Shown: positions 15,001 through 16,049 of the stretch, piece by piece
Layout of the letters: every line of letters starts with the position of its first letter
Position numbering within the stretch: the stretch's first letter is position 1
Program-made: the position numbers
Source: a virus
Lineage: Duplodnaviria > Heunggongvirae > Uroviricota > Caudoviricetes
DNA length: 16,049 nucleotides
Direction: 5' to 3' (one strand)
Virus record (IMG/VR): IMGVR_UViG_2778261567_000016
Location: 1 to 16,049 of that record

Positions 15001-16049
15001 TGTTTTTTTGTTTTAGATCCGTAAAAAAACGCCATTCAATTCCATTTGTTATAGCAGAAATGGTGACTTCTGGGGTAGAGATTGAAATATCTAGAAAGCT
15101 GTGGGCAATGATTGTCAATTTTTTCTGAAAATGATTTTGCTTCAATAAACATCACGGGAACATCATGACAAAATAAAGCGTAATCAACTCGTTCGTTACT
15201 CTTTACCCCTGGGAAGTCTGCGCTATACTCTGCCTTCACTTTTCGTGGGTCGTATGGAGTAAAGCCTAAAATATCTAGAAAAGGCATGATTAATGCCTGT
15301 TTGGTTGTTTCCTCTGTGTTACAGAAGCATCCCATGTTTGCAACATGCTCTGCGTGAGATTTTAACTTATTTGCAAAGTTTTCCATGATATATCCTCTGT
15401 GTGTAGGAGTGTCTATTTTCATCATCGTTTCTAATGGCGTCAAGATAGCTTGACAACTGTAACGAGGCTGTTTGTTGTTTGAAGATTGCTTAAGAAACAT
15501 CAAGTTTCATTGGTCTTGCAATTCCATACTTAGATGGCTGTTCGTGTCTGAGGGGAATCTTATTTACCAGCTCCCGTTCAGTGGCTATATACGGCGCTCA
15601 AGTTATGAAAGCCTGATGTAAGTCTTAAAAATTTTTTCCAGAATGCTTTACGATCGTAAAAAAATAAATACCATGTTAAGAGTGGTTACTTCGCCACATA
15701 GCTTAAATCCGCCGTCAGGCGGGTTTTTTATGCCTGAAATCGGACCAGTACGTTAAACGCGCTGGTGGCGGTGAATACCTGTCTTTCAGCTTGCTGGCTT
15801 TTTCGACAAGAGTTATTGGTGTGTCACGTTAACCGGAAAAGGGAAAAAGACATGCTGAAACAGCAGGATATGACAGAAACCGCCAGAGTGGTGTTTAATG
15901 AATTAAGCGTCACCGAACCGGCGACAGTCGGGGAGATTGCGCAGAATACTTACCTTTCACGCGAACGCTGCCAGTTAATACTGACCCAGCTTGTTATGGC
16001 GGGTCTGGCAGACTATCAGTTCGGTTGTTACAGACGCCTTCAGTCATGA

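Follow-up and report, generated by a model that had tools for sequence, protein, structure and literature searches.

Near the right-hand end of a 16,049-nucleotide stretch of viral DNA (Duplodnaviria; Heunggongvirae; Uroviricota; Caudoviricetes; IMG/VR record IMGVR_UViG_2778261567_000016, positions 1 to 16,049; hereafter the window), the two halves of a single HsdR-N-type nuclease domain lie in two different reading frames of the minus strand. How did this arrangement come about, and is there still a working nuclease gene here? A sequence-only reading had pointed out the split and offered an inactivating mutation, a sequencing or assembly error at a homopolymer, and a phase-variable or programmed shift as possible causes. 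We conclude that the two open reading frames (ORFs) are what is left of one prophage accessory nuclease gene, and that this gene was very probably pseudogenised recently by a real, inherited one-base insertion. The features on which the argument turns are as follows.

15036..15386, minus strand: N-terminal fragment ORF (frame A), 116 codons followed by TGA at 15038..15036.
15152..15154, minus strand: TGA, the nearest upstream stop of the frame that encodes TNGIEWRF (frame B), read from the sequence.
15081..15081, minus strand: the inserted base, T on the coding strand and A on the plus strand, after position 305 of the coding sequence (CDS), in codon 102.
14228..15080, minus strand: remainder of the gene after the frame change, residues 103-385 and the stop.
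14228..15004, minus strand: ORF of 256 amino acids (aa) starting at M128 (MDSSPF...), identical to protein P0123, which gene callers annotate as a separate protein.
15072..15075: GGGG run on the plus strand, CCCC on the coding strand, in codons 104-105 (TAC CCC), which are followed by the rare codon AGA at 15071..15069.
15003-15009 and 15023-15029: the two 7-base homopolymers of the gene, T7 and A7 respectively on the plus strand, both intact in the window.

Frame A starts with the ATG at 15386..15384, behind a Shine-Dalgarno-like AGAGGA at 15398..15393, and reads MENF...VDYALF...FIEAKSF...CPQLSRYFN. Residues 1-102 of this fragment are authentic, and residues 103-116 are an out-of-frame tail of 14 residues (LYPRSHHFCYNKWN) that ends at the TGA at 15038..15036. 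The whole catalytic set of D...(D/E)xK and QxxxY is present in this frame, as D68, E82-x-K84 and Q96-x-x-x-Y100. Frame B has no stop between the TGA at 15154..15152 and its own terminal stop at 14230..14228; it reads ...STPEVTISAITNGIEWRFF... and holds T-N-G-I-E-W-R-F together with the remainder of the protein. The stops at 15152-15154 and 15036-15038 therefore bound the zone in which the frame must change. Within frame B, a look-up of a TTG-started ORF of 305 aa gave no match, as gene callers use M128 instead (256 aa, P0123).

Elsewhere, nearly the same DNA is a single gene. A megablast search of 14228-15503 against 5,426 complete E. coli genomes returned three copies, 99.5-99.7% identical to the window, one base shorter in every case and each annotated as a single 385-aa protein (WP_032188582.1, 'type I restriction endonuclease'). 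All three intact copies occupy the same prophage position, with the Q gene on one side and a 65-aa ORF on the other; one of them is followed by a DNA methyltransferase gene, tRNAs and stx2A. We assigned the domain to the PD-(D/E)xK HsdR-N type by Pfam PF04313 and PF13588 at the curated gathering score. Taken alone, the N-terminal fragment matches HSDR_N with 38.9 bits and only as far as profile position 164 of 198, whereas the intact ortholog matches through residues 64-128 up to position 197 of 198, with 50.3 bits (cut-off 25.1); the corresponding HSDR_N_2 scores are 25.8 bits for the fragment and 33.8 bits for the ortholog (cut-off 25). Since the HSDR_N match continues to the end of the profile in the intact protein, the TNG frame is the homologous continuation of the same domain. 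The complete alpha-beta-beta-beta-alpha-beta core lies in one frame in the intact alleles and not in the window, where strands four and five (residues 109-121, with the TNG motif) are in the other frame owing to the insertion at 15081. More distant relatives agree with this picture: a word-index search found 1465 homologs and an exhaustive HMMER search found 3386 cluster representatives, and the full-length homologs among the matches listed are single ORFs, mostly of about 340-420 aa. The earlier proposal of one HsdR-N-type domain split over two frames is thus confirmed on the minus strand in all its coordinates, by the frames and by Pfam; the orthologs are single genes rather than two, and homology to the HsdR-N fold extends to the TNG frame.

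The only indel between the window and the intact alleles is the extra base at 15081, as found in two independent alignments and in an alignment of 18 sequences. On the plus strand, GAG-TTG of the intact copies is GAGATTG in the window; on the coding strand, CAA/CTCT (with the stroke at the point of insertion) has become CAATCTCT, and the codons TTC AAC TCT ACC CCA GAA have become TTC AAT CTC TAC CCC AGA. This site lies outside any homopolymer, simple repeat or repeat tract, and the extra base is absent from all intact alleles. Aligning orthologs to place the indel had been recommended from the sequence alone, together with the expectation of a one-base change around 15065-15080; the change is indeed of one base and nearly there, with the actual site one base outside that interval. 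The GGGG run at 15072-15075, which had been the suspected site, is six bases from the insertion, and its length is constant in 18/18 aligned copies (one of them has a G>T substitution inside the run).

The insertion is inherited in many strains. We fetched 17 loci with TTCAATCTCTACCCCAGAAGT, from 13 distinct samples, by way of the contigs of P0123 and of the exact 116-aa N-terminal fragment. P0123 itself had been found as a 256-aa member of the intact protein's 90%-identity cluster, and is exactly the C-terminal ORF from M128. Six of the carriers are NCBI assemblies (GCA_021080665, GCA_021080865, GCA_021080685, GCA_002460155, GCA_002515785 and GCA_036985025), and the remaining seven are Logan assemblies of independent SRA runs, with the contig of one of these common to 16 samples; nine fetched loci lacked the insertion at 15081. 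The exact 116-aa product is also indexed in 28 blocks of the public collection. Among the 18 aligned sequences, the eight insertion copies (the window plus seven of the fetched loci) have one set of linked single-nucleotide polymorphisms (SNPs) in common, at CDS positions -226, 57, 69, 188 and 1204, yet in the early region some carrier prophages are about 1% divergent. It follows that the allele was inherited and passed on through recombination, and the pattern of carriers fits one mutation inherited by a clade. A scan of GTDB species representatives found neither the intact nor the inserted allele, as expected with one genome per species, and scans of viral and metagenome collections found only four copies of the gene, none of which (0/4) has the insertion at 15081.

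When the extra base is deleted in silico, the protein is identical at 385/385 positions to P0124, an intact allele that occurs on 41 contigs (a protein-level comparison). The gene has undergone no further decay once this base is removed, and the pseudogene is therefore young. Of the causes proposed at the outset, a real inactivating mutation is the one that these data favour, given an identical inherited insertion in 13 samples that is absent from the intact alleles; we infer the inactivation itself from the parts of the protein that are lost. Pseudogenisation at this locus is an ordinary event in prophage evolution.

The intact protein is built from an HsdR-N-type PD-(D/E)xK domain, a helical region and a C-terminal domain like those of YdhG, YjbR and MotA. 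An AlphaFold model (predicted local distance difference test, pLDDT, 91) arranges these parts along the protein as follows.

Residues 25-39: nuclease core, helix.
Residues 50-55, 66-73 (with D68) and 76-83 (with E82; K84 follows): nuclease core, strands.
Residues 90-103 (with Q96 and Y100): nuclease core, helix.
Residues 109-113 (T113-N114-G115) and 117-121: nuclease core, strands.
Residues 145-234: helical region.
Residues 236-249: disordered linker.
Residues 260-385: C-terminal alpha/beta domain.

In an alignment of 106 diverse homologs, E25, D68, Y69, K84, Y100 and G115 are invariant, and conservation is at least 90% for E82, Q96, L97, F101, T113 and N114. These residues make up motifs I-III of the PD-(D/E)xK site and the QxxxY motif, followed by a conserved TNG strand. 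QxxxY is a defined part of the nuclease sites of the HsdR/RecB family and was described for EcoR124I HsdR (PMC2475608).

The ancestral gene occupied 15386..14228 of the minus strand, minus one base, and encoded a stand-alone 385-aa nuclease. In this lambdoid, Stx2-type E. coli prophage it lies antisense between Q, the gene of the late antiterminator, and the late operon. Its coding strand then gained one T, at 15081, immediately behind the QxxxY helix of the nuclease domain; in the model, the frame breaks where helix 90-103 ends, ahead of strands 109-113 and 117-121. Translation would run off frame from codon 103 and stop 14 codons later. The truncated product would retain the catalytic D, the ExK and the QxxxY, and would be without core strands four and five (the near-invariant T-N-G), the helical region and the putative DNA-binding domain at the C-terminus. 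Because these strands, the helical region and the C-terminal domain are lost, the truncated product should be inactive, and the outcome would be a loss of function. For the C-terminal domain, the resemblance to the 'double-wing' domains of YdhG (DUF1801), YjbR and the T4 MotA C-terminus comes at only 8-11% sequence identity and with no Pfam match, and DNA binding is suggested by analogy with MotA alone.

Two points weigh against a simple dead gene in this particular record. The claim for the window's own record rests on its identity with other assemblies, and the TAC-CCC-AGA that stands after the insertion would restore the frame on a +1 slip, which makes a low level of full-length protein possible. 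In its full form, the second point holds that a +1 ribosomal slip at CCC-AGA (15074..15069) brings translation back into frame, and hence that the allele is a hypomorph and not a null. The slip product would be 385 aa long and would differ from the wild type only at residues 103-104 (S-T to L-Y): on paper, tRNA-Pro re-pairs from CCC to CCA when the rare AGA occupies the A site, which yields ...RYFNLYPEVTISAITNG... in an open frame of 385 codons, and the GGGG/CCCC run is, speculatively, the only candidate place for a frame-restoring +1 slip. In E. coli, CCC-N sites are known for +1 slippage, as are hungry AGA/AGG codons. However, the slip arrangement was made by a lineage-specific mutation and is conserved in no ortholog, an upstream Shine-Dalgarno-like stimulator is not visible in the sequence, and spontaneous slips of this sort usually amount to about 1% or less. 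Related Stx phages also have two tRNA-Arg genes upstream of stx, which would lower pausing if they read AGA. We therefore consider such a rescue improbable, though it is the explanation that comes closest to competing with pseudogenisation.

A programmed frameshift, the last of the causes first proposed, finds no counterpart in the comparisons: neither the two-frame layout nor the slippery site is conserved, the full-length orthologs outside the lineage are single ORFs of about 350-400 aa, and near-identical intact alleles lack the insertion, leaving the two-frame state specific to this lineage. We also considered rescue by transcriptional slippage and rejected it, as the A7/T7 runs are downstream of the premature stop. 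The A6 at about 15120-15125 is the only run inside the overlap zone, and slippage there would scramble the QxxxY helix.

An artefact of sequencing or assembly, with the gene intact in the organism, deserves attention in principle: single-base indels are the commonest assembly error, and other indels of this gene in other assemblies do fall in homopolymers. We found three of these. One C is missing from a CCC run at CDS 282 (window 15103-15105) in two metagenome assemblies (L008 and L017); one T (coding strand) is added to the T7 run at window 15023-15029 in L018, whose contig occurs in 7 samples; and one A (coding strand) is missing from the A7 run at window 15003-15009 in L005 and in L011, which is E. 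coli DEC6C. The DEC6C copy looks like a sequencing artefact, as its Q, DnaB and methyltransferase genes are fragmented and a second deletion in a homopolymer lies upstream; its A7 deletion may thus be a homopolymer error. The 15081 insertion differs from these on both counts. Its CAA/CTCT site is not a homopolymer, and the identical insertion was found in 13 distinct, independent samples, from different projects and assemblers and all with the same linked SNPs, which makes an error in the record very unlikely. An apparent indel hot spot at CDS 282-377 was rejected as an ascertainment effect of retrieval via the 256-aa product started at M128.

Reversible slippage at GGGG or nearby, switching the nuclease on and off, is in our view no more credible than an error. 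Intact (P0124) and frameshifted forms of one protein haplotype do both circulate, and the gene has homopolymer runs (A7, T7 and CCC) with indels in other assemblies, so the length variation across isolates that the sequence-only reading advised looking for exists in those runs of other strains; at GGGG there is none. The 15081 indel is outside any repeat tract, the GGGG run does not vary, every carrier is in exactly the same state, and efficient switching would call for longer runs than those of 3 to 7 bases. Least credible of all is the view that the 116-aa and 256-aa ORFs are separate functional proteins, which has in its favour that gene callers annotate both and that the 256-aa product has a name of its own in E. 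coli DEC6C ('putative prophage Lp2 protein 6'), and against it that the split falls midway through a single Pfam domain and a single predicted fold, that the 256-aa ORF is generated by at least four different indels in different strains and has no Shine-Dalgarno sequence or other ribosome-binding site visible upstream of M128, and that the distant orthologs are all fused.

If the gene is a young pseudogene, could its loss have been favoured by selection? Four different frameshifts occur among near-identical alleles (at least 99.6%): the T gained at 15081, the C lost from CCC, the T gained in T7 and the A lost from A7. A 352-aa N6/N4 DNA methyltransferase is encoded two genes away in every fetched 15081 carrier whose contig reaches that far, with stx2AB next where the contig extends. 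One may speculate, at rather long odds, that nuclease loss is recurrently selected in Stx-type prophages by self-conflict with prophage methylation, provided that the nuclease is modification-dependent (type IV-like). In that case, null or leaky alleles would be favoured, the latter for instance via +1 slippage at CCC-AGA. The methyltransferase is present in one of the three intact complete-genome copies and missing from the other two, where only a small pseudogene remnant is left. The sample is small and came from a single protein look-up, and at least one of the four indels looks like a sequencing artefact. Against the idea, one intact nuclease copy does coexist with the methyltransferase.

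What kind of nuclease was lost? The intact protein matches phrog_4225 'endonuclease' over its full length (E 4.5e-147), and its homologs P0119 and P0120 carry the JGI label 'predicted type IV restriction endonuclease'. The same name belongs to COG2810, a family of stand-alone HsdR-N proteins that was grouped with HSDR_N in a survey of PD-(D/E)XK nucleases (PMC3424549). With COG2810 and phrog_4225 it shares the form of a single-gene nuclease borne by mobile elements; however, the type IV label is a prediction, modification dependence is putative for the family, and the window copy is broken. The same PD-(D/E)xK fold, with D...ExK and then the QxxxY helix, is found in the nuclease domains of HsdR subunits (EcoR124I HsdR, PDB 2w00; a fragment of V. 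vulnificus HsdR, 3h1t), and the nuclease domains of the type IIG/IIL enzymes BpuSI and DrdV have the same fold and motif order.

Despite this shared domain and the name given to WP_032188582.1, the protein is not a subunit of a type I restriction enzyme. At 385 aa it compares with about 1000 for a type I HsdR and has no superfamily 2 (SF2) helicase/translocase module, HSDR_N domains being the only ones found; the NCBIfam HsdR model PRK11448 gives 17.1 bits against a cut-off of 729, and hsdM and hsdS are absent from the neighbourhoods examined in E. coli, Citrobacter, Edwardsiella, Providencia and Salmonella. Because it lacks the helicase module, scores so low against the HsdR model and has no hsdM/hsdS neighbours, the RefSeq name describes the domain and not the system. 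Annotators should enter the two ORFs at 14228-15386 as a single frameshifted pseudogene, that of a stand-alone HsdR-N-type nuclease, and neither as two genes nor as a type I restriction enzyme; the 15081 insertion also cleanly marks a lineage, a subgroup of the Stx2 prophages. No family in PADLOC-DB v2.0.0 matched the nuclease at E <= 1, a profile search of PDB sequences returned chance-level matches only, and in the literature we found no experimental study of this nuclease family and no description of the 15081 pseudogene.

The nuclease gene sits in a short cassette of its own within the early region of a lambdoid prophage, which is the content of the whole window (ORF table; gene and Pfam table of GCA_002460155.1, which is 100% identical to window 5036-16049). 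The wider layout is as follows.

75-1361, minus strand: integrase (ORF table).
Left to right after the integrase: CI-type repressor, Rha/Bro/Ash-type genes, replication genes (HTH_36, IstB-like, DnaB), DUF968.
13722-14120: Q antiterminator, whose stop borders the nuclease cassette.
14121..15672: nuclease cassette of about 1.55 kb, from the Q stop to the conserved downstream region, holding only the nuclease gene and its upstream region.

The cassette is missing from Stx2 phages such as Stx2_EH2201; in Stx2_EH2201 itself, Q and the 65-aa ORF are only 215 bp apart. Homology with Stx2_EH2201 resumes at window 15673, in a block conserved in many Stx phages. The Q gene of the window (13722-14120) has about 71-78% DNA identity to the Stx2_EH2201-type Q (2539-2919 of locus L029), whereas identity is 97% from 15673 on, which places a mosaic joint at the cassette, between Q and the late region. 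As the nuclease gene is antisense to the late operon, its transcription must start from a separate promoter; a weak promoter-like site is present upstream of it, at 15443-15415 of the minus strand.

The right edge of the cassette has features of its own. The segment 15673-15729 is about 97% conserved with Stx2 phages that lack the cassette, and at 15709-15729, just ahead of the 65-aa ORF (start at 15853), it contains a GC hairpin followed by a T-run (CCGCC-GTCA-GGCGG-G-TTTTTT), which we read directly from the sequence and which a terminator scan did not list. This segment may be the start of the late transcript with a terminator, the target of Q. The late promoter would then stand at the right cassette edge, back-to-back with the upstream region of the nuclease gene.

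Apart from the dead copy in the window, the role of the intact family is the more interesting question. In prophages of Citrobacter (L030-L033), Providencia (L037-L039) and Salmonella (L040-L042), the orthologs, at 5001/6001 of each locus, lie 9-31 bp downstream of a CI-type repressor gene and in the same orientation. In C. koseri, the repressor-nuclease pair is found in a small prophage remnant beside phoPQ, which suggests that the gene has been kept for a function that benefits the host. The slot after the repressor is the classic place of lysogen-expressed exclusion genes, such as lambda rexAB. The orthologs share that position and orientation with rexAB, but RexAB has no sequence or fold relation to the nuclease, and the window gene differs in lying elsewhere (antisense, from Q to the late operon) and in being inactivated; its defence role is putative. 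Because the orthologs directly follow the CI repressor, a nuclease that is expressed in lysogens and used in defence is suggested. From the fold, the conserved active-site residues and the gene position only, we give roughly even chances to the intact protein being a single-gene accessory nuclease that is expressed in the lysogen and targets incoming DNA. Prophages of Enterobacterales widely carry the intact family, often directly after the repressor, and it is a reasonable candidate for a single-gene anti-phage nuclease.

The family is also found in other settings. An intact paralog of 386 aa, with 78% DNA identity, lies between the baseplate J gene and other structural genes in E. coli 214-4 (L004 4968-6128), that is, among the tail and baseplate genes of a different E. 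coli prophage, and 25 of the complete E. coli genomes have a copy of such identity. It follows that the family travels from one phage backbone to another, unrelated one as an accessory cassette of a single gene. Edwardsiella has the gene as an orphan, and a transposase gene adjoins it in one of the three genomes examined.

Finally, far to the left of the nuclease cassette, two Rfam matches above the gathering score lie side by side on the plus strand: an isrK Hfq-binding RNA at 8250-8326 (60.1 bits) and a C4 antisense RNA at 8351-8438 (82.3 bits). They are located at the start of an Ash/Rha-type antirepressor ORF (8196-9059), and the pair looks like an immI-like antisense control module of the P1/P7 type inside a lambdoid, Stx-type prophage.
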